Source of the DNA: an uncultured virus (IMG/VR IMGVR_UViG_3300035520_000621)
Lineage: Duplodnaviria; Heunggongvirae; Uroviricota; Caudoviricetes
Length of the DNA: 64,000 nucleotides
Virus record (IMG/VR): IMGVR_UViG_3300035520_000621
Strand: one strand, 5' to 3'
Shown: positions 1 to 54,789 of the stretch, piece by piece
Layout: each line of letters opens with the position of its first letter
Numbering within the stretch: position 1 is the stretch's first letter
The notes under the pieces: model-generated
Databases searched by the model: none
Seen by the model: the letters and a program-made list of their open reading frames with translations, nothing else
Told to the model about the DNA's origin: nothing
Translations under genes and position numbers: made by a program

Positions 1-722
1 GTATGGCAATGGGCTTGCTGATGGGAACGGGGGGGGTACAACCCCACTCAGGTTTCATGGAGGCGACAGGTGGAACAAATATCTCAGCAAAGTGGAACAG
101 GTTCGGAGGGCTGTTCGACCGATACAAGACGGACAGAACACCGCAACTTGCGAGGACGATACAACCGATACAATTACCCCCCCCACAATTCACAGAGCAG
201 CAGCAAGTTAGCAGAACAGGCGGCACTTGGGCAACAAAGTACGCCAAAAAAATCATTGGGTGGGATGTCGCGCCCACCGCAGAATATTTTAAAGAACTTT
301 TCCGCGTGGCAAAGCAACAGATTATTTGGGGTGCAAATTACTTCCCGAATATGCCGCCCACTCGTTGCTTCGTTGTTTGGCGTAAGCTGACAATATCGGA
401 TAAGTTCTCAATGGCTATGGCAGAATATGCTTGGACTTCATTCAACCAAAATGCCAAAGTCTTTGAGTTTGCACCGCAGGGCAAGAAGTCAGACCCGCGC
501 TTTCACCCGACACAGAAGCCCGTGGAACTGTACAATTGGTTGCTGACGAATTTCGCCAAAGAGGGCGACAAGATACTCGATACGCACCTTGGCAGCGGTT
601 CATCGGCGGTGGCGTGTGCAGCACTCGGTTATGAGATGTTGGGGATTGAGATTGACGATTATTATTTTACTAAGGCTTACGAACGCCTGAGGCGTGAAAC
701 GAGCCAATTAAGACTATTTTAA
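1..722 (+). CDS. DNA N6-adenine/N4-cytosine methyltransferase (beta class), 5' end outside window; apparently frameshifted at homopolymer tracts
   Basis: C-terminal HPTQKP and ILDTHLGSGSS (SAM-binding motif I), plus QIIWGANYF. Position 2 reads TAT GGC (YG, plausibly the end of DPPYG) in a different frame from the C-terminal part. Confidence 0.85.
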   Translation, partial: MAMGLLMGTGGVQPHSGFMEATGGTNISAKWNRFGGLFDRYKTDRTPQLARTIQPIQLPPPQFTEQQQVSRTGGTWATKYAKKIIGWDVAPTAEYFKELFRVAKQQIIWGANYFPNMPPTRCFVVWRKLTISDKFSMAMAEYAWTSFNQNAKVFEFAPQGKKSDPRFHPTQKPVELYNWLLTNFAKEGDKILDTHLGSGSSAVACAALGYEMLGIEIDDYYFTKAYERLRRETSQLRLF

Positions 723-727
723 ACATA

Positions 728-1015
728 ATGGCACAAAACTTACAGATTAGCGGTATTGTCAAACACATTGCCGCAGAGATTAATGGAATAAGCAATGCAG
801 GCAAGCAATGGCGTAGCAAGACTATCGTGATTACTATCCCCGGTGATTATTCCAAAGATGTAGCCTTTGACCTCAAAGGCGATAAGATTGACAAATTTGG
901 TAACAACCTCAACATTGGCGACAACGTAACTGTTGACCTTGATATTGATGCGCGAGAGTATAACGGCAAGTGGTTTACAACAGTTACAGCTTGGCGCGTC
1001 ACCCGAATAATGTAA
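728..1015 (+). CDS. DUF3127-like OB-fold, putative ssDNA-binding protein
   Basis: 95 aa with GKQWRS...VAFDLKGDKID...IDAREYNGKWFT.V.AW pattern typical of Bacteroidota DUF3127. Confidence 0.75.
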   Translation: MAQNLQISGIVKHIAAEINGISNAGKQWRSKTIVITIPGDYSKDVAFDLKGDKIDKFGNNLNIGDNVTVDLDIDAREYNGKWFTTVTAWRVTRIM

Positions 1016-1135
1016 TATTTAGCAAATTCTTTTTTTCATATTCAATATTTCTTAAAATGGTTGCGCGTGAGCGTAGCTAAGAAATATGCTATACTTCAAG
1101 CAGTTTTATCATGTTTTTTCATAGAATGTAAGGTC

Positions 1136-1166
1136 AAGGGTTGACTTGTGAAAGCCAACCCTTTTT
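1136..1166 (+). terminator. Intrinsic terminator-like hairpin with GTGA loop
   Basis: AAGGGTTGACTT-GTGA-AAGCCAACCCTT followed by T run. Confidence 0.7.
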
Positions 1167-1247
1167 GTTAACACTTCGTACACCCACTGCGAAAGTGGGG
1201 TAACGGTTTGTATGTCCCCGCGATGTTGATTTGCGGTGTTTGCGGTG

Positions 1248-1544
1248 TTACTGTTTGTTGTTTATTCTTTGCCATAGCTCATCGTAAATGTTGTTCAACG
1301 CAATAAGGATTAACCCGACATAATGCGATAGGTACGAGCCTATAATTGATAATGCTACGGCAATGATGATGTCACAACCGAGATATACCAAGGTAGCCAA
1401 CGACAGCCAAAAACTGCTGCATTTAGCGCACGTAGCTATCTTGTGGGCGATTGATGATATTGCCGCCCATAATTGCAAATGCACACCCAATGTAGCAATA
1501 ACAACCGCACACAGCATTATCAATACAGCGCACATATTACGCAA
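1248..1544 (-). CDS. Membrane protein with CxxCxSFW motif (DUF1360-like)
   Basis: Hydrophobic segments flanking TCAKCSSFW; last gene of a co-oriented cluster. Confidence 0.55.
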   Translation of the reverse strand: MRNMCAVLIMLCAVVIATLGVHLQLWAAISSIAHKIATCAKCSSFWLSLATLVYLGCDIIIAVALSIIGSYLSHYVGLILIALNNIYDELWQRINNKQ

Positions 1545-1965
1545 CTGTTATAGTTAGTACAATATCGCTAACGGCATACCTTCCGCATTTTTGGCAATCG
1601 CCCGCGACAACTGTATTCGTCACCTTGCCTGTTTCGCACGTGACGGATGTCGGCGCGGTTGTGGTGTATAGTGGAATGTTTACCGTTGAGTTGACAACTT
1701 GCGAGATACATTGACAACAGTCAGAGCCACATGGCGTATATGAGTACACTCCTTGCAAGTTGAGCGTTACCATATACTCGTTATTCCCCAATGATGCAAC
1801 ATTAGTAACTGACACCGTTGGATTGAAGATATAACCTGTGTCAACGCATACCTTCGTACATAGTTTTGTCGTGACGTTCAACACGCCGATATATGGCGAT
1901 GATGTTGAACCAAGTCCAAGTGTAAAGTTCACTACACTTGGTGTTTGAGAATTATTGCAAGACAT
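1537..1965 (-). CDS. Cys/Thr/Val-rich, probably beta-rich hypothetical protein
   Basis: 142-aa ORF with LCTKVC, PCGSDCCQC, DCQKC; overlaps the next gene by 8 nt. Confidence 0.7.
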   Translation of the reverse strand: MSCNNSQTPSVVNFTLGLGSTSSPYIGVLNVTTKLCTKVCVDTGYIFNPTVSVTNVASLGNNEYMVTLNLQGVYSYTPCGSDCCQCISQVVNSTVNIPLYTTTAPTSVTCETGKVTNTVVAGDCQKCGRYAVSDIVLTITVA

Positions 1966-2009
1966 ATTAGTATGTTTATATTATTTTATTATTAATCTGC
2001 ACTCACATA

Positions 2010-2040
2010 TTGCGCATATCGTTAATATTCGCTATATTTG
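2010..2040 (+). promoter_or_regulatory. Bacteroidota sigmaA-type promoter, antisense to the surrounding operon
   Basis: TTG at 2010-2012, 20-nt spacer, TATATTTG at 2033-2040. Confidence 0.6.
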
Positions 2041-2046
2041 TGCATT

Positions 2047-2104
2047 GCAGTTTGGTTAGAATACTCATAAGGGTAGCGTTGTCGTGAGGCAACGCTATTT
2101 TTTT
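2047..2104 (+). ncRNA. Candidate small RNA
   Basis: Lies between the promoter and hairpin TAGCGTTGTC-GTGA-GGCAACGCTA plus T run; no ORF. Confidence 0.5.
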
Positions 2105-2288
2105 ATTGTTCATCCGCTTGAATTTCTTCGGTTTCAGGTTGTGGATATAGTGCGGTGCGAATATCCTTCAACGTTGCTTCCATTTGTTCAAGACGGAGGG
2201 CAACAGCACATAAATCCTGTGACATCTCGTACACATTAAGGTTGATTAAATCAAAGATGTTGCGTGGGCGCGGTGTTTGAGTTTCCAT
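2103..2288 (-). CDS. Small hypothetical protein (coiled-coil-like)
   Basis: 61-aa ORF 1 nt from its upstream neighbour. Confidence 0.65.
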   Translation of the reverse strand: METQTPRPRNIFDLINLNVYEMSQDLCAVALRLEQMEATLKDIRTALYPQPETEEIQADEQ

Positions 2289-2289
2289 A

Positions 2290-2478
2290 TCACTTTAAAA
2301 ATTGGTTGACAAAATAGTTATTCCCATACTTATTGAGCGCATCGGTTAGCTTACTTGCTGTAACTGCTATCCCATGTTGACGTTTGATGTCAACAAAGGC
2401 ATATAGCGATTGTTGTAGTTCGTCAGCTTGTTGTTGGTTGTCGGCGTAGACGTACATCGTTATCTTGTATGGCTGCAT
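2290..2478 (-). CDS. Small hypothetical protein
   Basis: 62-aa ORF, 1-2 nt from both neighbours. Confidence 0.7.
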   Translation of the reverse strand: MQPYKITMYVYADNQQQADELQQSLYAFVDIKRQHGIAVTASKLTDALNKYGNNYFVNQFLK

Positions 2479-2480
2479 AG

Positions 2481-2825
2481 CTATTGAGGATTAGGTAACG
2501 GAGGAATGTCTGCCGGCGGAATTGTTTCAGTCATCTGACCGGCACCGCGCAGATGCTGAACGAATTGCCATGCTTGCTGCAAGTCTGATTGATTTTCCTT
2601 AAACCACCCGAACAGGGATTGAGCGGTTTGCTGAACTTGCTGCATCGTGGTTGGCGGTTGTGGCGTGAAGTCGGGTAGGGTAGTAATTCCTTCCGATAGA
2701 AAATCATATACTTGTTGCGCTTGCTCAACATTGCCGCGTGTGGCTGCAAGACACGACATTTTCATTGCTATCTTGCTCGATGTGTCAATCATACGAAGGT
2801 CTATTTTGTGACGTTTGAAAAGCAT
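2481..2825 (-). CDS. Gln/Pro-rich hypothetical protein
   Basis: 114-aa ORF in a tightly packed operon. Confidence 0.7.
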   Translation of the reverse strand: MLFKRHKIDLRMIDTSSKIAMKMSCLAATRGNVEQAQQVYDFLSEGITTLPDFTPQPPTTMQQVQQTAQSLFGWFKENQSDLQQAWQFVQHLRGAGQMTETIPPADIPPLPNPQ

Positions 2826-2886
2826 AAAGTTGGCTTAAAAAGGGTAAATCTACGGTTGCCCGTAGAAATACCCAATTAAACAGCGA

Positions 2887-3423
2887 TTAACCACCGCAAC
2901 TATCACAACCGCAATTGCGAGTTGACACACGTTGAACGCGCAACGAGCAGCAGTTATCAATCACAGATGATAGCGGATTGCTACCATTCTGTTGGTTGAT
3001 GAGCGCGAGAGCCTCGGCGGTTGCGAGCGCATTAGCTTGCGAACTACCACCCTGTGCAAGCGCGTTAGCTGTGGCTGTTTGTGATGCAAGTGAGCGCAAA
3101 TTTTGGTTGACATCAATTGTTACACCGTCAGTGCGCACAGCTTCGCGATTGATAGTCTGCGCGAGCAAAGACATCGTTTGCGCCTGTTGGTTGATAGCCA
3201 TTTCACTACCACGTGCGCGAGCCTTAGATGCGCTGTTTAGACCATAAGCGATTGCCAAACCACCGAAGATTGCAACGGCAAGACCTGCCGAACCGAGCGC
3301 AATGCCTGTTGCGGTCGCTCCATTGTGGCGTTTGTAGTAGTGTTGATAGCAGTCGCCACCATTATTAGTGCGATTGCCCCATAAAGCGAGTTCGCCCGCT
3401 GTAACATACGGATTACCTTCCAT
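2887..3423 (-). CDS. Hypothetical protein with Gly/Ala-rich hydrophobic helix, coiled-coil and Cys-rich tail
   Basis: Likely start MEGNPY at 3423; ATGIALGSAGLAVAIFGGLAIAYG; ends NCCSLR...NCGCDSCGG. Confidence 0.7.
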   Translation of the reverse strand: MEGNPYVTAGELALWGNRTNNGGDCYQHYYKRHNGATATGIALGSAGLAVAIFGGLAIAYGLNSASKARARGSEMAINQQAQTMSLLAQTINREAVRTDGVTIDVNQNLRSLASQTATANALAQGGSSQANALATAEALALINQQNGSNPLSSVIDNCCSLRVQRVSTRNCGCDSCGG

Positions 3424-5866: not shown

Positions 5867-6208
5867 TTATTCCAGCACCGCTTTGGCGATGTCTTTGGCG
5901 TGGCGGCGCAGGGCTTGCATCTGCTCAAACTCGGCGAGCGTTGCGCTGTCCGTTGGATTTGCAAGGTAGTTGTTGACTACCGCTTGCATCTTGTCTGTGG
6001 GGTATTCCGCTGTGATGATAGCGTTGACTATCGCGTCATAGTTCCATACCCCTGCGTCAAGCTGTACGCGCTTGTAGCGGCATGAGTACGGCTGCTCTTC
6101 GGTCGGCTCTACCGCCTCTGCATCGTAGTTGACCGTGCGCCTTTTCAAACCGAGGTGATTTTGCACCTCTACGGCTTCGGGAGCGTGGTCTGTGTATATC
6201 CATACCAT
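5867..6208 (-). CDS. Hypothetical phage protein
   Basis: 113-aa ORF between RT and holin. Confidence 0.7.
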   Translation of the reverse strand: MVWIYTDHAPEAVEVQNHLGLKRRTVNYDAEAVEPTEEQPYSCRYKRVQLDAGVWNYDAIVNAIITAEYPTDKMQAVVNNYLANPTDSATLAEFEQMQALRRHAKDIAKAVLE

Positions 6209-7643
6209 ATTCCTTTATCTCCTTTCTTAGTAAGTATAAATTGAAATTATAATCGTTTTTCACCTTTACCACGTCATAGTCACGTGTGTAGCAGACGCAC
6301 CAAAACACCTTGCACTCGCGCTGAAACAAACGGCGGCGCAAGCGGTAAGACGAGCAACCGCGCAGGAAACCGAGATAGCTGTTCAGCGCACTAATCAAGT
6401 GGCGCAGACTGCCGAGTAAGTCAGCGTTTACTTCGCCTTGCGTCATAGCGCAACATAGCGTTTCCGTGCGGCGCAGTGCGTCAACAAACCCGCCAACGGT
6501 GCGATTGCTGATATAACGACGGTGCGGCTTAATCACTTGTCCGACAAACTTCACGCCCTTGCTGACGTGTTGCAGATAGAACTTATCGGGGTGCATCGTC
6601 AGGTCATAGCGTTGCAATTCGCGGCGTAGCGTATCACGTAGTTGCAGACAAAAGTCCTTGTCGCGTGAGATAGTGCAAATGTCGTCAACAAACTGTTCCA
6701 ATGCCGAGCCGTGTTCGCGCACCAACGTCAGAATGTCGGCAAGAACATGACTCATTAGGAAGTTAGCGGCAAGTTGGTTAATGATATTGCCTATTGCTGT
6801 GCCGTGGTCTTGGTCGCGGTTGTATAGCGACTTGCTTGGGTTGAGGCGTTCCCACATTGCAAGCGGACTGCGGCGTATCGCGTCATGCTGTGGTCGATGC
6901 AGCACCGTTAGGCGCGTCAGATATAGCAATACGTCTTTGTCGCTGTCGTGATATTCTTCGATGATTAGCCGTTCGAGTAATTGCCATAGAATACGCACAT
7001 TGATGCTTGTGAAGAATGACTTGACATCCACCTTGCAGATGTAAGCGTCGCGTGTGTATTGCTGTGTGATATTCCATACGTCACGCTCTACGGCGGCGAT
7101 TGCCGAACTTGTGCCGAACCCCTTGCGGCAGTTGTGGCTGATATTTCCTTGCGCACGATGTCGTGCTTCAAACAGTGGTGTCAGCCGTTGACATATCCAC
7201 GTCTGCACAATGCGGTCGCGGAAGTTGGCAGCAAACACTTCGCGGTATGTAGGTCGCGACACGATGAAGCACGTACTCGGTCGCGGCTTGTAGGTATTAG
7301 AATAAACTTCATCAATCAATCTATATAAGTCCATTTCTGCATCGGCGGTGCGGTAAGCCGAACAATCCGCCGAGCCTTTTTTCTTCTTGCAGTATTCCTT
7401 GTATGCTGCTATCCAACCTTCTTTGACTTTATCTTCTAAGGCTGCCACCGCCCTCACCGCGTTAGTGTTACCCTTGTTGTTGTTGTTGATGTTCGCTGAT
7501 GAGAAGTTCGCGTACCAAGCGTTGCTCTGCGAATAGGACGATGATGCGTACGCTGATTTCTTAGCTGACTCGCTCGCTCCGATTAAGGTATCAAGCTCGT
7601 TAGCGGTACGCCCATTAAATAGTATAAAGTCATTTGCAACCAT
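6057..7643 (-). CDS. DGR reverse transcriptase (ORF includes the TR in frame at its 5' end)
   Basis: REVFAANFRDRIVQ, CRKGFGT, KVDVKSFFTSI, GTAIGNIINQLAAN, FVDD, LTMHPDK, KGVKFVG; adjacent avd and TR/VR pair. Confidence 0.95.
   Translation of the reverse strand: MVANDFILFNGRTANELDTLIGASESAKKSAYASSSYSQSNAWYANFSSANINNNNKGNTNAVRAVAALEDKVKEGWIAAYKEYCKKKKGSADCSAYRTADAEMDLYRLIDEVYSNTYKPRPSTCFIVSRPTYREVFAANFRDRIVQTWICQRLTPLFEARHRAQGNISHNCRKGFGTSSAIAAVERDVWNITQQYTRDAYICKVDVKSFFTSINVRILWQLLERLIIEEYHDSDKDVLLYLTRLTVLHRPQHDAIRRSPLAMWERLNPSKSLYNRDQDHGTAIGNIINQLAANFLMSHVLADILTLVREHGSALEQFVDDICTISRDKDFCLQLRDTLRRELQRYDLTMHPDKFYLQHVSKGVKFVGQVIKPHRRYISNRTVGGFVDALRRTETLCCAMTQGEVNADLLGSLRHLISALNSYLGFLRGCSSYRLRRRLFQRECKVFWCVCYTRDYDVVKVKNDYNFNLYLLRKEIKEYGMDIHRPRSRSRRGAKSPRFEKAHGQLRCRGGRADRRAAVLMPLQARTA
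7441..7546 (-). repeat. DGR template repeat (TR)
   Basis: 106-nt gapless match to 8121-8226 with 13 mismatches, 12 at TR adenines; 9 AAC codons. Confidence 0.97.
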
Positions 7644-8113: not shown

Positions 8114-11100
8114 TTAGAATGCTGCCACCGCCCTCACCGCGCCAGTGAGACCCTTGCTGTAGTAGCCGATGCTCGCTGATGAGAAGCTCGCGTACCATGC
8201 GTAGCTCTGCGAATAGGACGATGATGTCCAATACCAAGCGTTGCTGAGCACGGAAAAACGTGAGGCAGCGAATGGTTTAGCAAAGATAGCATTTTCTACG
8301 GAATTATCATAACCTTTTGCATGATAAAACAACAAGCGTCCTGCTTCGCCGCCGGAAGGTAAGAACCACATACCCGCACGGAATTTGTCCGCTAACGTTT
8401 CGCTTGCCTTAACCGTAGGTTCGTAGGCGGCACAGAGTGATGCGGCGGGGTAATAGTACTCGTTGCCGTTGCTGATTTGCTTGTCTACAGCGGTCATTAG
8501 CAGTTCAAGGTTGGCGTACAGCGACATCCCGCTTGTGGCTGCGGGTACGGGCAGATTTACGCCGCTATCGGTCAAGATTTTGTCGCGGTGCTTGACGATT
8601 TTCAGAGTGTTGGCACGACCCCACGGAAGTTTCTCACCCGTAGCGTAACCGGGCAAGTCAAGTTCGATTGCGTAGCGTCCGAGTTCACCAAGTGCGTATT
8701 TACTGTTCGGTACAACGGCAAAGCCGTCGGGTTGTGACGAGTCGATGTATGCCGAGTTTTTCGGCTGCGGTGAGCCGCTCTCTTTGTTTACCAACCCCGC
8801 GACGTCCTTGCATGAGTATGCGGGGTCGTCTGTCAGTGTCGGGTTGTTGTTATAAAGACCCCACTTGCGATTGCTCTGAATGTCGGAAAGTGCCACCATT
8901 AGGCGGTCTGCCTTGTCGTTGGGGTTGATGTAGAAGCAAATACCGATAACGGTCTTGCCCGTATCGAGAATGTCGGAACTTGTGCCGTCATAGTAGACGT
9001 AATCACCTACGGCACAATCGCGCTGATAGAAGTACACCGTTGCCGATGCGGTCAGCTTGGTGTCGTCCGACATTGTGACTTCCACCGTAGCTACGGCACT
9101 CGGCTTGTCGTCTGACGTGCCTACCTTACTGACTGTGATAACGCCCGTGGCTGCATCTATCGTAGCGTAGTCGTTCTTGGCGAGCGTCCACTTCACTGCC
9201 TTAAAGGTATTGCCGTTGGTGACGTTAGGCACAACTTCAAGTGAGTACGTGCCTATCGCGCCATAGTAGTTCGCGCCCGATACGGTGACGGAAGTAAACG
9301 CTATCTGCTTGTATGATACGTACAGCGCGTTATCCGTGGAGTCTACGTTGCCCCATGCGGCGAGCATCTTGGCTTTCAGAGGTGCGCCCACTACGGCATC
9401 ACTTGCCATTGCAATCACGCCCGTAAGTTCCGCGCCGATGTCGGCAAGTTTCTCAACGGTGTCGGCTGTCACGTCCGACCAATTTGCGCCCGTGATTTTC
9501 ACGGTTTCGAGGTCTGTGGCGTTGTCGATAGCCGCCACAACGATAGGCTGCGGATTGAGTGACGGACAATCTGTAATGACGATTGATGAGATGTTCTTGT
9601 AGCCTTGGATTTCCACATCAAAGAGATTGCGACAGCCGTTGAAATTGATTTTTGTCAAAGTCGCAGGAAGTGCAACGGTGAGAAGTGTATCGGTAGCGGG
9701 TACGGTCAGCAAAGTCACTGACGTGTCGCGCAGGTCTACGTTTTCAATTTGCTCCGAGCTGATTGCGATTTCAGTAGCTACGTTAGGGCAGTTGCAGATA
9801 ACGAGTTCTTTCAGCGCGATGCTGTTGCTGATTTTGGCAACGTTGTCATTGAGCTGAGTGTTGGGCGTTGCGCTGTCGGAATAGTCCACGATAAGACGTT
9901 CAAGACGCTTGCAGTTTTCGAGGTTGTTGATACGGATACCACCGTCGGCAAGGTCTTGCAAACCGTGTGTAGTCTTAACACCGTCCTCTTCACTGTACGA
10001 GCTGATTTCAGTAATTAAGTCGGCATCATAGACGGTCACAGTTGTTTCGGTGTATTGCACGCCCTTTGTTGAGGCGAAATAGCTCGGCGAGTTGGGCGTG
10101 ATTGCGCGTTGGGTATTGGTACCGCCCGCACCCCAATTCATAGAGGCATACAGCGGATAAGCGTATTTGACGCATAAGCCGTTGCCGACCGCGCTGCCCC
10201 ACAGACGAAATTCAAGAGGCTTGGAGTTGTTCGCACCACACTTGCTGTCAAAGTAGCGTTGACGGTATTTGAGATAGTGCCGCATGACTTCGCGCTTGTC
10301 ACCGTGTGCCATGTCGAATTTGCCCGTATTGGCATAGCCCATTCCGTCAGCGTTATAGAGTGCCTCACACCATTGCGACCAAAACGAATTGTACAGCGAC
10401 CACATATCGCTCTCGTTAAGTCCTGCCGTTTGCATTGCGGCATACATCGTATTGATGTCGCTTCCCCATGCTTGCGCTACGCAATCCCACAACCCCGACA
10501 AACGCCCATTAAATACCGCCTCGCCTGCTGTTGTTACAACTGAGTATGTGCTGCCGTTGTAGGTTTCGCCCGACACTACGCCCGTGGTTTCCGTACCGCT
10601 GTCGTAGCTGTCGCCCCACTCGTGATATACCTTGAATGTCAACGCACCCGAATTGTTGTAGCGGAAGCCGGTATCTGAGTCACGTTGAGCAAAACGAGCA
10701 AGCGGCTTGCCTGATGCGGTGTTCTCGAACACGATAGTCATGTTCTTATCCATTGAGTCTGTTCCCAACGTGTAGGTGAAATAGATAAAGTAGAACAGCG
10801 CGGACTCTTTGACGAGATAGTCGGCATATTCGGCGTTGAACTTGGCAATGCGGTATTCGGGGGTGTCGCGGTCATACGTCACAGAGCCATAGGTTACGGA
10901 CTGCGCCAAACGGCGATATTCGCCCTGCCCTGTTTCGGCTTCCGTTTTCAGATAGTAGCGTTTTGCGATAGTGGGGTTGCACGAATACACCCAATTGTGA
11001 AAGCGTCGCAACCATTGTGTTTCCGACCTCGCGAGGTCTACCTGTGTTTCTGACTTGGCAACACCGTACTTGCGCCCCGTGCCGTCGGGAGAATAGCGCG

Positions 11101-13864
11101 GGAAACGTGCGTAGTACAGTCCTGTTGCGCGGTCTACCCATTCACCGTTTACCCATTCGCCCTCGGCAAGCTCTTCTGAGAAGAAGTTGACGTTATCCTC
11201 AACTTCCCATGCCTCGTCTGCCCCACTATTGTCCATGCCGAAGTAGTACGGGTCATACTTGTTGTTAATGAAGTTGTAGATAGACAGAAAGCGCAGCGAT
11301 GCAGCACCGTTGTTGTAGGTGCGCAGATAGCCGATTTCGGGGAAGCCCGACAGCGATTGTCGATAGGTGATGTCTTGCCCTGCGGCTTGCTGTGCCGCTT
11401 GCTTCTCGGTGAGTAAGTTGGGATAAACCTTTGCCGCGCTGAGCAAGATGCTGTGGTAAGCATTGGCGGTGAGAATGTTGAAGATGCCCTCTGATGAAGC
11501 GAAGTTGACCTTATCCACAAACTCTTGTGCCGATGCCGTTACGCCGTTGGCAATTGCATATCCCGTGATTGTCAGCTTTGTGCCGTCTGGGAAATTGACT
11601 TGCCATTGCGTATTGTTGTAGTACATATAGTGGTCAGCCCAATTCTTGTAGGGGTCGGGGTATGACAGTGATGATGTACCGTCAAGTGATACGCCGTGGT
11701 TGGTGCAAGTGAATGACGCTCTTGCCAAGTCCGATGTATCAGTGCCGTTATCCCATGCAGGATTAACAAACTCCGTATTGCACGGCACGTAGGTCTTTTT
11801 GTCGGGTGGCGTCGTTTCCATTTCCCAAATCTTGTAGGGAGTGTTTGGTAATGCTGTCAGCACCTTGTTGAAGTCTACCTCGTTGCTGCTGTTCAGAATG
11901 TCGTTGCGCTGTGCGATAGCGATTTTATCGTCAAGATTGGGCGTGTCGTAGGCGTAGTTACCCATCATCTGACGGTAGTTGAGCGATTTGTCGTAGCACC
12001 GTGCGGTGTAAAACACCACGTCGCAATCTTCCGAACCGATTGTGATAGGTTGTGGCTTGCTCTGTCGCCATGTCGCGCTCTTGTAATCCGCCATGCGCAC
12101 AATCACACCGTTGAGATAGATGTAAGCGATATTGGCATAGGTCGTTTCGGGGTCTTTGCCCACGAGTTGGTTGACGCACGTTGTGGTCGTTCCGTCGATG
12201 CAGAAGCCTACGCGCACACGCTGCTCATCGCTGTATATCGTTTCAATCTTGCCCGATGTGCCGCAGTACAACTCAATGCGGTTGGCGTACAGCACGAAGC
12301 CAACGTTGTTGTACAGACACTCGGCAATCTTGGTGTCGGCATCCACACAGTTCTGCGCTTGTAGTTCGAGTTCTATGGTCTTGCCCGTCTTGTCTGCTGC
12401 CGCCGTAGCGTTCGCGCCGCAGTCCGTAGCAAACGGATAGAAGCCGTCTAAGGTGATATATTTGCCTGCTTTGACAACGAATGTATCATTGATAAAGCCG
12501 TTACTGCTGTTGAGCTGTAAGTTGTCGCTGTACTTGACGGTGCAAGTTGTTTGACCGTTGTATTCCGAGTGCCAATTCTGTGCGTCCGAGTCAGCGTTGG
12601 TGCGCCCTACCGCAGACAGATACACTTTACACTCTGATGCGGCTTCCAATGTTACGCCCGCGTCCGCTACGAGCAACGTTGTTGATGCCGTTGCGTCACC
12701 TACAAGAACGTCAACATTGAGCTGACCGAGGTCGAGGTATGACGTTTCGCCCGCGGTGATACGCACTTCCTGCATACCCGAAGTGCCGTCGGCTGCAAGT
12801 GTAATGCTCTGCGTTGACGGTGAGAACAGCAACTCACCCGTAAGCGGTGAATATACGCCGAAGCGCACCGTAACGGTGTTGCCTGCGTTGTTGGGGTCGT
12901 ACAAGAAGTAGGCGATTGATGCCGTGCCGTACAATTTGACCGAGGTGTCGGAATTGCGCCCGATACATACGCTTGGCGTTGTCAGACCCGCTTTAATGAA
13001 GCGCGTTGTAATGGTGTCGGTGGTGATGCCGTACTCGGTGTTTTCAGCGTAGACCGCTATTGTGTGAACACCGCCCGCAAGCGAGCCGTCCGAGTCGATT
13101 GTGAAGTCATTCGTCGAGTTGGTGATTGTTGACGTGGCGACTTCCTCACCGTCTACCATTAAGTGTACCAATGCCGTTACACCGCTACATCTGGCGCGGA
13201 ACATCCACCCATTCACGTCTGCCGAGTGCAGCACAGACTCATCATAGCCGTCAGCCAACGACAGCACAATTTCCAATGCACGTATCGTAAACGTCCATGT
13301 GCGCGACTTACCATGCTGATTACCAACTTCGAGCTTGACCGTATTCGTTTCCTGCGTCAGGTATTTTCCGAGGTCGATACTGTACTCGTTGCCACCTGCC
13401 GCCAACGATAGCGACAACTCCGATACTTCCGTGTTGTTGATAGTGACCTTGGCGTAGCCGTTCTGTGGGTCGAGGTCTGTCGTATCGCCACCGTAATAGC
13501 AGTTGTACGTAAACTTCAACACATTGCTCGACCCCTTAACCATATCCGTATCGGGATTTTGCGTTATGCGCGTTGACAGGGTGTAGTCTGCGCTTGTTGC
13601 TCCCGAAGAATAGAACTGTACGCTTGCCAACACAAGCGACTCGTTGGCTGTCGGGTCTTTCTCATACGCTTCCTTGCTATCGGTATCAGCAAAGGCGCGT
13701 AACGTGGTCAGACCGTTGTCGTCACTCGTCAACAGCCAATCGCCATGCTTCTTGCTGTCAAGATTTTGCAAGAACTGTTTCAGATACGCCTCGATGCGCG
13801 AGCCGAGGTAGCCCTCCCACTCCGTATCTAAGCTCTCAATAGGCTTGTCAATTTCGTTTGCCAT
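8114..13864 (-). CDS. DGR target: 1916-aa tail-associated/receptor-binding protein with C-terminal CLec-type domain
   Basis: WFLPSGGE...WYWTSS...AW...VRAV C-terminus, LRR-like and Ig-like stretches; last gene of the tail module. Confidence 0.9.
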   Translation of the reverse strand: MANEIDKPIESLDTEWEGYLGSRIEAYLKQFLQNLDSKKHGDWLLTSDDNGLTTLRAFADTDSKEAYEKDPTANESLVLASVQFYSSGATSADYTLSTRITQNPDTDMVKGSSNVLKFTYNCYYGGDTTDLDPQNGYAKVTINNTEVSELSLSLAAGGNEYSIDLGKYLTQETNTVKLEVGNQHGKSRTWTFTIRALEIVLSLADGYDESVLHSADVNGWMFRARCSGVTALVHLMVDGEEVATSTITNSTNDFTIDSDGSLAGGVHTIAVYAENTEYGITTDTITTRFIKAGLTTPSVCIGRNSDTSVKLYGTASIAYFLYDPNNAGNTVTVRFGVYSPLTGELLFSPSTQSITLAADGTSGMQEVRITAGETSYLDLGQLNVDVLVGDATASTTLLVADAGVTLEAASECKVYLSAVGRTNADSDAQNWHSEYNGQTTCTVKYSDNLQLNSSNGFINDTFVVKAGKYITLDGFYPFATDCGANATAAADKTGKTIELELQAQNCVDADTKIAECLYNNVGFVLYANRIELYCGTSGKIETIYSDEQRVRVGFCIDGTTTTCVNQLVGKDPETTYANIAYIYLNGVIVRMADYKSATWRQSKPQPITIGSEDCDVVFYTARCYDKSLNYRQMMGNYAYDTPNLDDKIAIAQRNDILNSSNEVDFNKVLTALPNTPYKIWEMETTPPDKKTYVPCNTEFVNPAWDNGTDTSDLARASFTCTNHGVSLDGTSSLSYPDPYKNWADHYMYYNNTQWQVNFPDGTKLTITGYAIANGVTASAQEFVDKVNFASSEGIFNILTANAYHSILLSAAKVYPNLLTEKQAAQQAAGQDITYRQSLSGFPEIGYLRTYNNGAASLRFLSIYNFINNKYDPYYFGMDNSGADEAWEVEDNVNFFSEELAEGEWVNGEWVDRATGLYYARFPRYSPDGTGRKYGVAKSETQVDLARSETQWLRRFHNWVYSCNPTIAKRYYLKTEAETGQGEYRRLAQSVTYGSVTYDRDTPEYRIAKFNAEYADYLVKESALFYFIYFTYTLGTDSMDKNMTIVFENTASGKPLARFAQRDSDTGFRYNNSGALTFKVYHEWGDSYDSGTETTGVVSGETYNGSTYSVVTTAGEAVFNGRLSGLWDCVAQAWGSDINTMYAAMQTAGLNESDMWSLYNSFWSQWCEALYNADGMGYANTGKFDMAHGDKREVMRHYLKYRQRYFDSKCGANNSKPLEFRLWGSAVGNGLCVKYAYPLYASMNWGAGGTNTQRAITPNSPSYFASTKGVQYTETTVTVYDADLITEISSYSEEDGVKTTHGLQDLADGGIRINNLENCKRLERLIVDYSDSATPNTQLNDNVAKISNSIALKELVICNCPNVATEIAISSEQIENVDLRDTSVTLLTVPATDTLLTVALPATLTKINFNGCRNLFDVEIQGYKNISSIVITDCPSLNPQPIVVAAIDNATDLETVKITGANWSDVTADTVEKLADIGAELTGVIAMASDAVVGAPLKAKMLAAWGNVDSTDNALYVSYKQIAFTSVTVSGANYYGAIGTYSLEVVPNVTNGNTFKAVKWTLAKNDYATIDAATGVITVSKVGTSDDKPSAVATVEVTMSDDTKLTASATVYFYQRDCAVGDYVYYDGTSSDILDTGKTVIGICFYINPNDKADRLMVALSDIQSNRKWGLYNNNPTLTDDPAYSCKDVAGLVNKESGSPQPKNSAYIDSSQPDGFAVVPNSKYALGELGRYAIELDLPGYATGEKLPWGRANTLKIVKHRDKILTDSGVNLPVPAATSGMSLYANLELLMTAVDKQISNGNEYYYPAASLCAAYEPTVKASETLADKFRAGMWFLPSGGEAGRLLFYHAKGYDNSVENAIFAKPFAASRFSVLSNAWYWTSSSYSQSYAWYASFSSASIGYYSKGLTGAVRAVAAF
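8121..8226 (-). repeat. DGR variable repeat (VR)
   Basis: Encodes SSSYSQSYAWYASFSSASIGYYSKGLTGAVRAVAA; TR equivalent is SSSYSQSNAWYANFSSANINNNNKGNTNAVRAVAA. Confidence 0.97.
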
Positions 13865-29673: not shown

Positions 29674-30114
29674 TTAATTCCCAGCTTTGCCCCCAGACTG
29701 TTCTTGACGGATATTGACTACTTCTTGCTTCGTCATCTGCATCGTCGTGTCCCTTATCGCGGTCAAGAATATGGTAGCAAGATAATAGTCTTTCACAGGA
29801 ATTTTTTTTTTAGCTTCTGCCAAAATATCCTTCAATTCGTCATCACCTACTTGGTAGATGTAGTAATACCAACGCCATTTAAGCCACCATAGAAATTTGA
29901 TTTTCCAATAGCCGTTGAGCAGGATAGCTGCGACAGCTTGACAAGTTGCCTTGTCGTCATTGTCTTCTTGCGCCATGATGTGGCTTATCTTGCGGATTGT
30001 GCCGCGACGTATCCAACCGAGTTTGCGTTTGCGCCCTCTGAAGGTAATCTCTGTGGGTTCGTCTTCTATTAGCTGACTGAGAAGTCTCTCGTCATTTTCG
30101 TTGGGTAGTTCCAT
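29674..30114 (-). CDS. Tail assembly chaperone (G-like)
   Basis: Position between major tail and tape measure genes. Confidence 0.65.
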   Translation of the reverse strand: MELPNENDERLLSQLIEDEPTEITFRGRKRKLGWIRRGTIRKISHIMAQEDNDDKATCQAVAAILLNGYWKIKFLWWLKWRWYYYIYQVGDDELKDILAEAKKKIPVKDYYLATIFLTAIRDTTMQMTKQEVVNIRQEQSGGKAGN

Positions 30115-43170: not shown

Positions 43171-43467
43171 TGGAATTTTAGGGGTGTGCAAAAAAGTTGC
43201 CCAGCTAACAAAGTACTGCGAGAAGGGTGTCTGACGCGGTTTTGGAGTAAAAAAAATAAAAAAATAAAAAATTTTGAGGGATGCTGACTGTGTTGTATAA
43301 CGGCGTATGTGGGGGGGGGGTGGGGTAGGCTACGCTTACTGGCTAACGTTAGGCGATATCTATCTCCCTGTCCCCGTCACATTCGCGTGGGGGCGGAATT
43401 TTTTTTAACATTTGGGTTAATTTTGGTTTTATATTTAATGTTATACATAGTAATATAAAGTCATTTT

Positions 43468-45010: not shown

Positions 45011-45958
45011 ATGAAAAACGAAACAAATTTAAAAAGCGACGTTTACACAAAGGTAGCTAATCGCCTGCTCGAAATCATGGATAAAGGGCTAATTCCATGG
45101 CGCAAACCGTGGCGCGGTGTCCATGGTGAGATATTCGCCGGTTGCATCTCCTACTCCACCGGTAAACCTTACTCGCTCCTTAATCATGTGTTATGTGAGT
45201 TTCGCGACGGCGACTATATCACATTCGCGCAAGCGAAGAAGCTCGGCGGTAACGTCAAGCGCGGCGCAAAAGGTTACCCCGTTGTATTTTGGTCGTTCGT
45301 CGAAAAGGATGCAACAGACCAAGACGGAAACAAGCGATATAACGAGCGCGGCGAGGTCGTCAAAGCGTCTTACCCTGTTTTAAAGTGGTATCATGTCTTT
45401 AACGTTGAGGACTGCGAGAATATACCGGCAAGAAAGAAATCAGGCGTTAACGCCGGCGATGATACGCCCGCCGTGGAACTTGACCCAATCGAAGCAGCCG
45501 ACAAAGTGGTATTTGATTACGTGGCAAGAGAAAGTATCGCGTTACATATAACCAAATCTAACGATGCATATTATAGACCCTCGGATGATAGTGTAACAGT
45601 ACCGGAGCTCTCACAATATAACGAGGTTAGTGAATATTACGCCACCCTCTTTCACGAGCTGACGCACTCAACCGGTATTAAAACCCGTTGCAATCGCGAA
45701 GATATGCAAAAGATTAAATCATTCGGCGATGCAAGTTATTCGCGCGAGGAACTTACCGCAGAAATGGGAGCGGCGTTTATACTCGGTTATCTCGGCATCC
45801 AACAAGATAATACAATGACAAATAGCGCGGCATATCTCCAAAGCTGGAAATCAGCAATCAAAAACGACCCCAAGTGTGTTGTCCTCGCTGCCGGTCGTGC
45901 TGAAAAAGCGGTTAACTATATCCTTAACGGCAAACCTCAAGACGATGAAACGATTTAG
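45011..45958 (+). CDS. ardC: ArdC-like antirestriction protein (ssDNA-binding plus zincin-like domain)
   Basis: IPWRKPW, GKPYS..N, TFAQAK..GG.V..GAKG, VFNVE, HELTHSTG, Y..EEL.AE. Confidence 0.92.
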   Translation: MKNETNLKSDVYTKVANRLLEIMDKGLIPWRKPWRGVHGEIFAGCISYSTGKPYSLLNHVLCEFRDGDYITFAQAKKLGGNVKRGAKGYPVVFWSFVEKDATDQDGNKRYNERGEVVKASYPVLKWYHVFNVEDCENIPARKKSGVNAGDDTPAVELDPIEAADKVVFDYVARESIALHITKSNDAYYRPSDDSVTVPELSQYNEVSEYYATLFHELTHSTGIKTRCNREDMQKIKSFGDASYSREELTAEMGAAFILGYLGIQQDNTMTNSAAYLQSWKSAIKNDPKCVVLAAGRAEKAVNYILNGKPQDDETI

Positions 45959-49586: not shown

Positions 49587-49783
49587 AAAATAAAACACCC
49601 CGACCAATAAAAACCTTCAGGGTCACGACAAACTCGGAGAATTATTTGGCGTATCTCCGAGCGCGTATCCCGAATTTTGAGTTAACGGCATATCTAAATA
49701 AGCTGATATATCAAGAGAGTATTGACGATCAATTGTACAATCCCCAAAGAGATTACAGGAGGCAACAAGATGATAACGCTTAA
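49583..49783 (+). CDS. Small putative RHH-like DNA-binding protein
   Basis: 66 aa, IKTFRV followed by two helices; coupled to both neighbours. Confidence 0.5.
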   Translation: MKNKTPRPIKTFRVTTNSENYLAYLRARIPNFELTAYLNKLIYQESIDDQLYNPQRDYRRQQDDNA

Positions 49784-50594
49784 AGATGCTTTCGCGGCGA
49801 AATATCCGCAATATGTACATATCCTTAATTACTTCGAGGAAGCCACAGGCTTAGCAGCGACATGGGAAAATCTCAGTCGGTCAAGACTCGAACTGATGGT
49901 AGACTATATGCACAATCTTCATGAGCTTTCGCCCAATACGGTGTCACAGTATTGCACGAAGTTGAAAGCAGTGATAAACCGTTACCGCGATGATATAGAC
50001 TTACCGCGTGATTACGGCAAAACGCTGTCACCCCGCAGAGTTAAGTCTGTCGCGACATGGCTAACGGATGATGAGCTATCGAAATTAGCAGCATACAAAC
50101 CGCAGACCCTGACGGAGCGAATAGTCAAGACGCAGTTCCTCCTCGGAGCTTATACCGGCGCGAGACATTCTGACTTTATGACATTCGATTTCACAAATGT
50201 TGTCGATGGTTATATTAGTTACGTCTCAATTAAGACCCACATATTAGCCACAATCCCACTAAAACCAATTGTAAGGGATTTGCTAAACGACATGGTGAGG
50301 AAGGAGGTGACTTTGCCGACATTCAATAGCACATTGCAGCGCATGGCTCGTAGCTGTGGCATTACATCTAAAGTCAGGATATACAAAGCGGGTAAAGATA
50401 TTACGGCTGAAAAATGTGATATAATCAGCAGCCACACAGCGAGACGCTCGTTTGCTTCAAATCTCTATCTCCATGGCTGTGACATATACAGTATTTCTAA
50501 AATGATGGGTCACACTAATATAGAGACGACTAACAAGTATATAGTCTGTGGCATCCGTCACCATTCGGAGCAGGTATTACAATATTTTGCGTAA
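49770..50594 (+). CDS. Tyrosine recombinase (short, no arm-binding domain)
   Basis: TGARHSD, SHTARRSFA, MMGH, KY catalytic residues; probable start MITLK. Confidence 0.9.
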   Translation: MITLKDAFAAKYPQYVHILNYFEEATGLAATWENLSRSRLELMVDYMHNLHELSPNTVSQYCTKLKAVINRYRDDIDLPRDYGKTLSPRRVKSVATWLTDDELSKLAAYKPQTLTERIVKTQFLLGAYTGARHSDFMTFDFTNVVDGYISYVSIKTHILATIPLKPIVRDLLNDMVRKEVTLPTFNSTLQRMARSCGITSKVRIYKAGKDITAEKCDIISSHTARRSFASNLYLHGCDIYSISKMMGHTNIETTNKYIVCGIRHHSEQVLQYFA

Positions 50595-53643: not shown

Positions 53644-54789
53644 TTACTTCTGTTTCAGCAGGTTTTCAAGCCTGTCAAACTCTTTTTCAACAGACTCGTT
53701 AAGTACTTTGGCGTAGATTTGTGTTATTTGAATATTAGTGTGACCCATCATTTCAGCGAGAGTTTCGATACTACACCCATTATTCAAACACCACACAGCA
53801 AACGAGTGCCTTGCCATGTGTGATGATAGTGCTACATTGATTTCAGCAGCTTCAGCAATTACCTTCAGACGCATATTGTATTGTTGATTGCTAATTACAG
53901 GCAGTTTGTAATTGTATTTCTTGAGAATTTCCAACGCAGGAGACAGCAAGACAATGTAAAAATCCTCGTCTGTCTTCTTGCGCACATCGTGTACAATATA
54001 TTTGCCGTCACGCTCGATAATTTGGGAAAAATCAAATTTCGCCAAATCAGCGTATGCCATGCCGGTATAACATTGAAACAAAAACAAGTCACGCGCTCTG
54101 TCAACCGTTGGCATGGTGAGTTTTACAGCCGCCAAACGGTTAATTTCAGGTTGCGTCAGGTATTTGCGAATACGAGATTTGCCGCGATCAATCTTCACGC
54201 CTTGATATGGGTTCTTGTCAATCAGTTCCTCATTAAGTGCAAGATAAACATAAGTCTTCATCGTCTTGTGATACGATTGCACAGTAGCCTGAACATAGTT
54301 GCGGTCATGCAGCCAATTGTCAAATGCAAGTATGTTCGAGCGGTTCAAATCTGTCATATACTTGATTTTGCCATACTGTTTCAGTACAGTAATAAGTTTG
54401 AGTTGCGTCTTCTTTGTCGATAAACGCAAGTCAGCCCTGTTTTTGATTTTGTTCTCAGCGTACTCGATGAAGTTGTCAACCTTCCGTTCATCGGCGGTCA
54501 TGAAGCGAGCGAGTTTATCAAAGTTAAACTCTTCGCCCTTGATGGAAAGCTCATTTATCCACGTGATAACTCGATTATATTGCACTTGTAAGCTCTCATT
54601 GTAATCTAATAAGTGGATATTGCGTATAACTTTACCGTCCTTCCATTGGTCGGAGAACAGCCTGATGCCCGTCGAGAAATATCTTCGTTTTCTCTGATAG
54701 GTTACTTCAAGTTGGACGAGTGCCAACTTTGTTTTCGTGGCTTGGTGCTTTCGGTCAAACACAAGCCTCACAGTTGGGTAGTTAGTCAT
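53644..54789 (-). CDS. Integrase (tyrosine recombinase with arm-binding and SAM-like domains)
   Basis: RLVFDRK...YFSTGI arm domain; YTGMAYADL, SHMARHSFA, MGHTNI.ITQIYA (Bacteroidota IntN/IntDOT-like). Confidence 0.95.
   Translation of the reverse strand: MTNYPTVRLVFDRKHQATKTKLALVQLEVTYQRKRRYFSTGIRLFSDQWKDGKVIRNIHLLDYNESLQVQYNRVITWINELSIKGEEFNFDKLARFMTADERKVDNFIEYAENKIKNRADLRLSTKKTQLKLITVLKQYGKIKYMTDLNRSNILAFDNWLHDRNYVQATVQSYHKTMKTYVYLALNEELIDKNPYQGVKIDRGKSRIRKYLTQPEINRLAAVKLTMPTVDRARDLFLFQCYTGMAYADLAKFDFSQIIERDGKYIVHDVRKKTDEDFYIVLLSPALEILKKYNYKLPVISNQQYNMRLKVIAEAAEINVALSSHMARHSFAVWCLNNGCSIETLAEMMGHTNIQITQIYAKVLNESVEKEFDRLENLLKQK

Follow-up and report, generated by a model that had tools for sequence, protein, structure and literature searches.

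The first 722 nucleotides of IMGVR_UViG_3300035520_000621, a 64,000-nucleotide stretch of DNA from an uncultured virus (IMG/VR; Duplodnaviria, Heunggongvirae, Uroviricota, Caudoviricetes) that we call the window, carry the 3' two-thirds of a gene for a phage β-class N6-adenine DNA methyltransferase (1-722, +; PF01555, phrog_67). The 5' end of the gene, which bears the catalytic DPP, lies to the left of the window. On the evidence below we think it fairly probable that this gene is a contingency locus controlled by 2 slippery tracts, which would switch the enzyme ON and OFF, would provide 3 alternative ON isoforms of a single loop, and would be OFF in the allele that was sequenced. Coordinates are window positions, on the + strand unless stated otherwise, and frames 1 to 3 are the forward frames counted from position 1.

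Two homopolymer tracts enclose a segment open in 3 frames

As read from the sequence, a run of 8 G residues (G8, 29-36) and a run of 8 C residues (C8, 177-184) form the first and second slippery repeats and enclose a cassette of 140 nt (37-176) that, in a stop scan, is open in all 3 forward frames and would encode a hydrophilic peptide in each of them. A preceding reading made from the letters alone (the sequence-only reading) had described these tracts and the absence of forward stops between them. Both stand, and the stop-free stretch of the + strand around the tracts turned out to be wider, extending from 20 to 208 (189 nt). Frame 1 has a stop at 19 and the next one at 388, frame 2 has its first stop at 209, and frame 3 has none before 720, so that frame 3 is open as sequenced from position 3 through to the stop codon at 720-722. 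Direct reading also verified the positions and frames of the 4 related motif units that had been reported: RFHGGDRWNKY in frame 2 (50-82), RFGGLFDRY, the commonest form in the family, in frame 3 (99-125), RNLRGRYNRY in frame 1 (142-171) and, beyond the C tract, the conserved core motif RTGGTWATKY in frame 3 (213-242), which was delimited by alignment of relatives. Nearly all relatives, with or without an insert, keep a core of the RTGGTWATKY type. It is followed in frame 3 by the conserved C-terminal body (246-719), defined by invariant alignment columns, Pfam and a CcrM profile match; within this body invariant columns mark HPTQKP (504-521) and motif I, DTHLGSGSS (579-605), which binds S-adenosylmethionine. 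Upstream of G8, frame 2 translates as YGNGLADGN (2-28), where catalytic motif IV ends and the post-DPPY loop begins, and this frame closes at the TAG (209-211, stop scan) that the DPPY frame would meet in the G8/C8 allele. The YG at position 2, the frame-2 stop and the C-terminal part in frame 3 are thus as the sequence-only reading had them. Relatives carry G6 to G13 at the site of the window G8, and G...C tract pairs recur in 8 of them (L089, L136, L140, L142, L146, L152, L170 and L172).

Shuffling positions 22-208 left no stop in any frame in 2 of 20,000 mononucleotide shuffles and in 14 of 20,000 dinucleotide-preserving ones. A second stop-free stretch of 189 nt occurs on the + strand of the 64-kb window, at 12173-12361, and shares with the one around the tracts the maximum length on that strand; the - strand has longer ones, of 263 and 245 nt. 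Because positions 1-245 are poor in T (37 T in 245 nt), a lower stop count is expected there. The stop-free segment is real and locally unusual, yet not decisive alone.

The tracts are also part of a perfect 10-nt inverted repeat (29-38 and 175-184, GGGGGGGGTA and TACCCCCCCC). RNA prediction has its arms pairing (G8UA with UAC8) and closing a multiloop of 136 nt, with z = -2.66 against shuffles. We rejected a long-range G8:C8 RNA stem as a conserved element, since many relatives have G...G at these sites and L140 and L152 lack the TA extension. A shufflon-like switch by inversion between G8TA and TACCCCCCCC was rejected as well: 2 of the 3 reverse cassette frames contain stops, the reverse frames do not resemble the inserts of relatives (13.5-14.6 bits), and many relatives carry G...G instead of G...C.

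The sequenced allele appears to be OFF

In full-length relatives a single frame runs from DPPYG through a variable insert and RTGGTWAxKY to the conserved body. Only the Y and G of DPPYG (position 2, frame 2) fall inside the window. The frame-2 peptide YGNGLADGN matches DPPYGNGLQDGN of the in-frame relative P0033. The gene calls of P0001 and P0002, 2 proteins that are nearly identical to the window product (for P0001, 97% identity across 100% of the frame-3 product), begin MVIVLKYFGNFQVARLTWRLLTRRMAMGLL... and contain ...LLTRRMAMGLL. Their N-termini would correspond to the frame-3 reading and, judging from codon overlap worked out from the proteins, the preceding frame would fit the family sequence ...DCLEVLR.LP...VDPPYGNGLADG (...DPPYGNGLADG). 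Both comparisons support frame 2 as the entry frame, as had been proposed from the letters. For P0001 and P0002 the automatic calls start at an upstream out-of-frame start, which gives a spurious N-terminus, MVIVLKYF..., and hides both the frame break and the missing DPPY.

Because the catalytic motif would lie in frame 2 and the conserved body in frame 3, the G8/C8 allele appears to be OFF as sequenced, with the enzyme truncated at 209-211; apart from the junction at which the frame-2 N-terminus meets frame 3, the window allele has no defect. Loss of one G takes frame 2 into frame 3, loss of one C makes the same change after the cassette, and one added base at each tract leads there by way of frame 1. 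By arithmetic on the stop positions, G7/C8, G8/C7 and G9/C9 each yield one continuous open reading frame (ORF), and the OFF state and the 3 restoring alleles of the sequence-only reading are correct on this count. An exact search of viral contigs with the first 28 bases of the window gave 0 matches, in scans that may omit the phage's own and very near genome records, and the relatives' loci that the scans returned did not include the DNA of P0001 or P0002. Circular joining of the window ends was rejected, as the open ORF at the 3' end is unrelated and no DPPY is present there.

Simple repeats and frame breaks coincide in relatives

We examined 180 loci (80 from viral contigs, 20 from species genomes and 80 from metagenome contigs) among 8,000 candidate relatives. 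A script placed the DPPY heptad and the IIWG(A/G)NY anchor downstream of it, and 150 of the 180 loci could be scored after 17 without DPPY, 8 without the anchor and 5 duplicates had been left out. G or C runs of at least 6, A or T runs of at least 8, dinucleotides of at least 5 units and 4-5-mers of at least 3 units were counted as repeats. Recurrence of the tracts in homologues was a check that the sequence-only reading had called for, and a simple repeat was present between DPPY and the anchor in 79 of the 150 loci. Of these, 37 were in frame and 42 out of frame, compared with 70 in frame and a single one out of frame among the 71 loci that lacked a repeat (Fisher's exact p = 5e-14). In all of the 42 out-of-frame loci but L010 and L113, that is in 40, a repeat lay inside the interval in which the frame has to change, and both shift directions were found (by hand count, about 16 of +1 and about 26 of +2). 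Most repeats were poly-G, and poly-C, (AG)n of up to 16 units, (AC)n of up to 21 units and (CCAGA)7 occurred as well. Runs of at least 7 G or C reached 2.58 per kb in this interval and 0.085 per kb in the flanking 613 kb, a 30-fold difference. After the anchor, all 42 out-of-frame genes had a C-terminal ORF of 129-156 amino acids, like that of ON alleles, and they are therefore not old pseudogenes. The record titles of the relatives name metagenome-assembled genomes of Bacteroidales, Muribaculaceae, Sphaerochaeta, Treponema, Fusobacterium, Bacillota and Omnitrophota.

Repeat length also differed among otherwise near-identical sequences. L161 and L163 share 98.7% identity and differ by a single indel, in the tract, which is G10 in L161 (in frame) and G9 in L163 (out of frame); L027 carries G11 and is out of frame, and in L033, which is in frame, the tract is interrupted by a T; L003 and L010 have G10 and G8 at the same tract. 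P0002 equals the window product on both flanks, yet follows window frame 2 between the tracts, which implies tracts of about G12 and C7. Together with the G8 and C8 of the window, simple repeats inside an ORF that stand between the DPPY frame and the C-terminal frame and whose length determines which frame is read, these differences have the form expected of a simple sequence repeat (SSR) contingency locus, and a repeat hotspot that scrambles the frame in this way appears to be the signature of one. In several relatives (L058, L070, L078 and L094 among them) the W-G-G codons of IIWGGNYF form a second run of G7-G8, 140-280 nt after DPPY, and this run at the anchor may be a further slip-prone site within the same gene.

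Each forward frame of the cassette resembles coding sequence

We compared the translations of 37-176 by blastp with the inserts of 54 relatives that have DPPY and the core in one ORF. The best scores were 26.6 bits for forward frame 1, 33.1 bits for frame 2 and 38.1 bits for frame 3, against 13.5-14.6 bits for the 3 reverse frames; 900 shuffled-frame controls had a mean of 15.3, a 99th percentile of 20.0 and a maximum of 24.6 bits. All 3 forward cassette frames thus look coding-like, and their peptides have counterparts that relatives translate in frame. The RFHGGDRWNKY motif is in frame in P0095, P0032, P0101 and P0108, and a motif of the RFGGLFDRY type in P0033 (FNRFGGLFDRYK) and many others. 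RNLRGRYNRY is 69% identical over 13 amino acids to an in-frame segment of P0075, and similar in-frame forms occur in P0007, P0028 and P0034. Other cassette peptides, VEQVRRAVRPIQ-like and GS..STDTRR-like, are also found in frame in relatives.

Full-length relatives read homologous cassettes in different frames. L146, on the one hand, and L152, L172 and L136, on the other, have homologous DNA between their G and C tracts and read it in different phases; all 4 are full-length, and in this group the reading phase resynchronises at the C tract. Likewise, the full-length L107 (G10) reads VRFGGIFDRYK in unit 1 and LEPIRTTVRQIQ in unit 2, and the full-length L001 (G9) reads YDSGDGSTNTRK and WNRFGQRFDRYK. 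Alternative ON frames therefore occur in nature, in 2 lineages, and the choice among overlapping frames put forward by the sequence-only reading has counterparts among relatives. With a strict hidden Markov model (HMM) of the RFGGxFDRY motif, strong copies were found in 2 different forward frames in 8 of 90 loci, with a reverse-frame maximum of 6.6 bits. Intact motif copies that are not translated were present in 11 of 21 ON loci with repeats and in 0 of 9 ON loci without them. The region between tracts was open in 3 frames in 13 of the 24 loci with at least 2 tracts. Where the tracts are at least 60 nt apart, this held for 10 of 15 loci, with about 3.2 expected if one frame need be open (p = 6e-5), and for 7 of 12 against 2.6 expected after one member of each related pair was dropped (p = 0.003). 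Triple-frame openness, the conservation of which the sequence-only reading had marked for checking, is thus enriched in the stretch between paired tracts.

The cassette lies opposite a DNA-recognition loop of CcrM

The frame-3 product matches PF01555 (N6_N4_Mtase) with 54.3 bits over residues 157-226 (cut-off 26.7) and the phrog_67 DNA methyltransferase family with E 5e-31, and its family matches begin at about residue 82-85, after the C tract. At the DNA level, a distant blastn search of window positions 1-3000 against named phage records gave one match, of 102 nt and 76.5% identity, to an unannotated record. A profile of the relatives matched CcrM, M.BceJIV, M1.HpyAVI, MboIIA and RsrI (profile E 2e-18), and the match covers CcrM residues 192-261 in the C-terminal body. 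An AlphaFold model of P0005, an in-frame relative modelled in place of the window protein, had a predicted template modelling score of 0.69 and a confident core, and Foldseek with this model returned CcrM, M.BceJIV, TTHA0409, MboIIA and RsrI (E 1e-7 to 1e-6). The predicted fold is Rossmann-like and similar to that of solved β-class methyltransferases.

DPPY precedes the core by 40-130 residues in relatives. In the profile alignment the insert lies directly after DPPY, opposite CcrM residues ~35-89. In CcrM, according to the available part of the published work (PMC6787082), Loop-2B comprises residues 31-61, recognises the first 3 bases of GANTC and is disordered when unused. The cassette loop would thus be the counterpart of the base-reading Loop-2B. 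Residues 39-69 and 80-116 of the P0005 insert have predicted local distance difference test (pLDDT) scores below 50 and are predicted to be disordered. A role of the cassette loop in DNA recognition is possible, as is a tolerant flexible loop. Some relatives have no insert at all and take the form DPPYSKA..RTGGTWAAKY. The full-length L140 and L142 lack the RTGGTW core and have a copy of RFGGRFDRY as their sole motif of this kind; P0032, P0108 and P0057 likewise have no RTGGTWAxKY at the usual place and carry an earlier RFGGRFDRY- or RFHGGDRW-type copy in the loop. Because L140 and L142 have only this copy, there are hints that motif copies may stand in for the RTGGTW core.

A model for switching and for the origin of the cassette

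We propose that the post-DPPY loop was expanded by a short repeat-derived cassette bracketed by the hypermutable G8 and C8, and that replication slippage at either tract would shift the reading frame. With G8/C8 the frame-2 catalytic N-terminus would run into the TAG at 209-211 and no full enzyme would be made; a net shift of one base would restore the full-length enzyme. Because no forward frame of the cassette holds a stop, 3 classes of ON allele would exist, G7/C8, G8/C7 and G9/C9, together with lengths equivalent to them modulo 3. The ON forms would differ only in ~47 loop residues, each containing one RFGG-x-FDRY-like copy plus the constant RTGGTWATKY. The outcome would be a stochastic, heritable and reversible ON/OFF switching of phage DNA methylation. 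That switching is adaptive and that the isoforms are active we infer from sequence comparisons; the likely advantage would be a hedge, in which protection from methylation-sensitive restriction is traded against exposure to methylation-dependent restriction.

The three-frame pattern may itself derive from tandem copies of a unit of ~40-49 nt, an origin for which we find moderate support. Motif copies in relatives are 40-49 nt apart, a period of 3n+1, because of which successive copies would fall in successive frames. For the array to be translatable, the unit must then be open in all 3 frames, and frequent frame changes at the tracts would keep every frame purged of stops. The tandem-unit model is based on one 22-nt direct repeat in the window (106-127 and 152-173, spacing 46 nt), on a 4-way DNA alignment with a mean column identity of 56%, and on the much clearer copies in relatives.

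Phage context and other features of the window

The methyltransferase gene is followed by an ORF for a DUF3127/phage single-stranded DNA-binding-like protein (728-1015), and the rest of the window is that of a tailed temperate phage, with terminase large subunit, portal, major head protein and tape measure genes. It also encodes a primase, RecT, an exonuclease, two integrases, an anti-restriction protein and a reverse transcriptase. The anti-restriction-like protein (45011-45958, +; phrog_7245, E 2e-74) is in keeping with restriction pressure from the host on this genome. The 2 tyrosine-integrase-like genes are at 49722-50594 (+) and 53644-54789 (-).

A diversity-generating retroelement is also present, with its reverse transcriptase at 6057-7643 (-; phrog_1423, E 1e-51) and a pair of repeats of 109 nt (7438-7546 and 8118-8226) that are 87% identical. 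On the - strand, the 7438-7546 copy has A at 12 of the 14 mismatches, and because of this concentration it is the template repeat and 8118-8226 the variable repeat. The variable repeat lies at the 3' end of the gene for a protein of 1915 amino acids (ORF 8114-13864, -). The phage thus carries 2 separate diversification devices. Elsewhere in the 64 kb, long homopolymers are limited to G10 (43311-43320), C9 (61109-61117) and T10 (29802-29811). G10 and C9 lie in gene-poor stretches, outside ORFs of at least 60 amino acids, and may act as additional slippery sites within promoters or small genes.

Discussion

The frame breaks could have arisen without any switch: they may be homopolymer errors of sequencing or assembly in an intact gene, or the loop may be a hotspot of mutation in a gene on its way to being lost. 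Several sequencing platforms are prone to errors in homopolymers, the window, P0001 and P0002 are all OFF, L010 has extra downstream stops, and stop depletion is mostly compositional. Errors or decay, however, do not sit well with tracts that are conserved across relatives from several phyla and enriched at one spot, with the lack of any other lesion in the 42 OFF alleles, or with an ON fraction (37 of 79 repeat-bearing loci) near, and slightly over, the one third that free-running tracts should give. Differences of 2 and 4 bases (L003 and L010; P0002) and di- and pentanucleotide repeats are untypical of consensus errors, and interrupted, "locked" tracts exist (L033). We regard this explanation as improbable, and we give as little credence to recoding, in which the apparently broken allele would always be expressed across the frame break, by a ribosomal frameshift or by slippage of transcription at the G run. 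Runs of at least 8 G are slippery for both polymerases and ribosomes, the OFF alleles are intact, and the predicted pairing of G8UA with UAC8 would suit such a mechanism, as would the low-level expression in E. coli of frameshifted SSR alleles of a Mycoplasma bovis mod fragment that is described in the available part of a preprint (bioRxiv 10.64898/2026.04.01.715767). A conserved slip site, used in a fixed direction in all members, was nevertheless not found: +1 and +2 shifts are both present, 37 of the 79 loci with repeats are in frame without any shift, and the kind, length and position of the repeat vary (G, C, AG, AC, pentamer). We saw no conserved slippery heptamer or downstream structure, and G...C pairing is absent from the many G...G loci.

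A third possibility accepts the switch and gives it another product. In the three-way specificity switch proposed by the sequence-only reading, each ON frame would supply a different base-reading loop and hence a different methylated motif or activity. The cassette aligns to CcrM Loop-2B, each frame has a distinct variant of the RTGGTWAxKY-related motif that relatives use in frame, alternative ON frames exist in relatives, and the reliance of L140 and L142 on an RFGGRFDRY copy would allow the copies to equal the core functionally. The constant RTGGTWATKY in all 3 ON forms of the window speaks against it, as do the insert-less relatives, the low pLDDT of the P0005 insert and the fact that a 3n+1 tandem origin would yield one motif per frame without selection. 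We consider a switch in specificity unlikely, and ON/OFF switching with 3 loop isoforms remains the reading that we prefer.

Several observations weigh against that preferred reading and are best considered together. The motif copies of the window are only weakly alike (frame 2 against frame 3, E = 0.007; frame 3 against frame 1, E = 0.56), Tandem Repeats Finder reported 0 rows for window positions 1-400, and the strict RFGGxFDRY HMM detects only the frame-3 copy in the window (26.9 bits), the frame-2 and frame-1 copies being supported only through their own variant forms in relatives. Stop depletion in repeat-bearing inserts (observed/dinucleotide-expected 165/269 = 0.61) is barely stronger than that in the C-terminal domain (1069/1472 = 0.73). 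We therefore rejected strong family-wide selection against stops in every insert frame, the enrichment being found only between paired tracts. The placement of the window DPPYG in frame 2 draws on relatives, since the 5' end lies outside the window. The near-identical trio of the window, P0001 and P0002 is OFF throughout by this reading, for which the chance expectation is ~30%, and this fits a lineage-specific dead gene as well. Finally, switching within populations is suggested by comparisons between assemblies only, and homopolymer errors of the sequencing platforms, which are not known for these metagenome assemblies, could account for some of the frame breaks.

In bacteria, phase variation of methyltransferases by means of repeats is a textbook strategy, exemplified by Type III mod phasevarions and by the homopolymer-controlled methylases of Helicobacter and Campylobacter. 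As far as the accessible parts of the sources describe them, these systems share with the window gene a simple repeat in the ORF of an N6-adenine methyltransferase that shifts the frame and produces heritable, reversible ON/OFF states. The window gene differs in that it belongs to a phage, is small and stands alone: no res or hsd partner was seen within 3 kb downstream of it. Its repeats are placed in the recognition loop that follows DPPY instead of near the 5' end, and it has 2 tracts with 3 translatable frames between them, and several ON forms. Phage contingency loci were first reported in a 2025 preprint, for other genes (Gomez, Barrick and Waters, PMC12633550). In the part of this source that was available, homopolymers in T2 agt and T4 rIIA slip, with reversible loss and regain of function, and the authors interpret this as a hedge between defences that need DNA modification and defences that are blocked by it; a word count of the paper gave no occurrence of "methyltransferase". 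The window gene shares with T2 agt a slipping homopolymer in a phage DNA-modification gene. In the lytic coliphages described there, the glucosyltransferase or rII gene carries a single poly-A run, whereas the window has paired G/C tracts, a hotspot conserved family-wide and alternative ON frames.

With CcrM and M.BceJIV (6pbd, 9c3u) the window family shares the order DPPY ... HPTQKP ... GxGxx, the fold and a cassette at the place of Loop-2B; it differs in an identity of only 12-18%, in the absence of the CcrM C-terminal DNA-binding domain and in the frame-variable insert of its loop. For Mycoplasma bovis mod1, too, 2 slip sites in one methyltransferase ORF have been proposed to be able to compensate each other and to give a more-than-binary output (bioRxiv 10.64898/2026.04.01.715767). 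In the accessible part of that preprint this is a rescue at the level of expression, seen with a reporter, in which an (AG)n shift is compensated at an upstream A5T site, and not a set of heritable alternative protein segments. If loop isoforms did differ in specificity, the locus would also resemble Type I hsdS inversion, in which, as far as the material available to us describes it, one locus gives several enzyme forms by stochastic heritable change; hsdS does so by recombination between duplicated target-recognition domains, and the window locus would choose among overlapping frames by repeat length. A full-text search of a limited collection of papers, supplements excluded, found no description of the two-tract design with 3 readable frames and full-length alleles that use different ones, and nothing on repeat-controlled phage methylases was found in the available parts of PMC10333322, PMC8008677 and PMC11741434 version 2.

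It is doubtful that the recognition loop is frame-multiplexed, that is, that 140 nt encode 3 versions of a base-reading loop from which the joint tract length picks one or none. If this were true, a population would mix unmethylated genomes with up to 3 differently methylated kinds, through a choice of frame and not through recombination, and isoforms that differ in target would represent a new way to diversify enzyme specificity. The same design recurs in phage methylases from metagenome-assembled genomes labelled Bacteroidales, Spirochaetes, Bacillota, Fusobacterium and others. For annotation, the frame breaks mean that entries of this family will often be split or mis-started by gene callers, as in P0001 and P0002. 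A clade of phage methylases spread over several bacterial phyla keeps a slippery repeat at one spot beside the catalytic DPPY, and about half of the assembled repeat-bearing alleles are out of frame yet otherwise intact. This points to widespread bet-hedging on phage DNA methylation, which bears on how phages survive in hosts that have both methylation-sensitive and methylation-dependent restriction.

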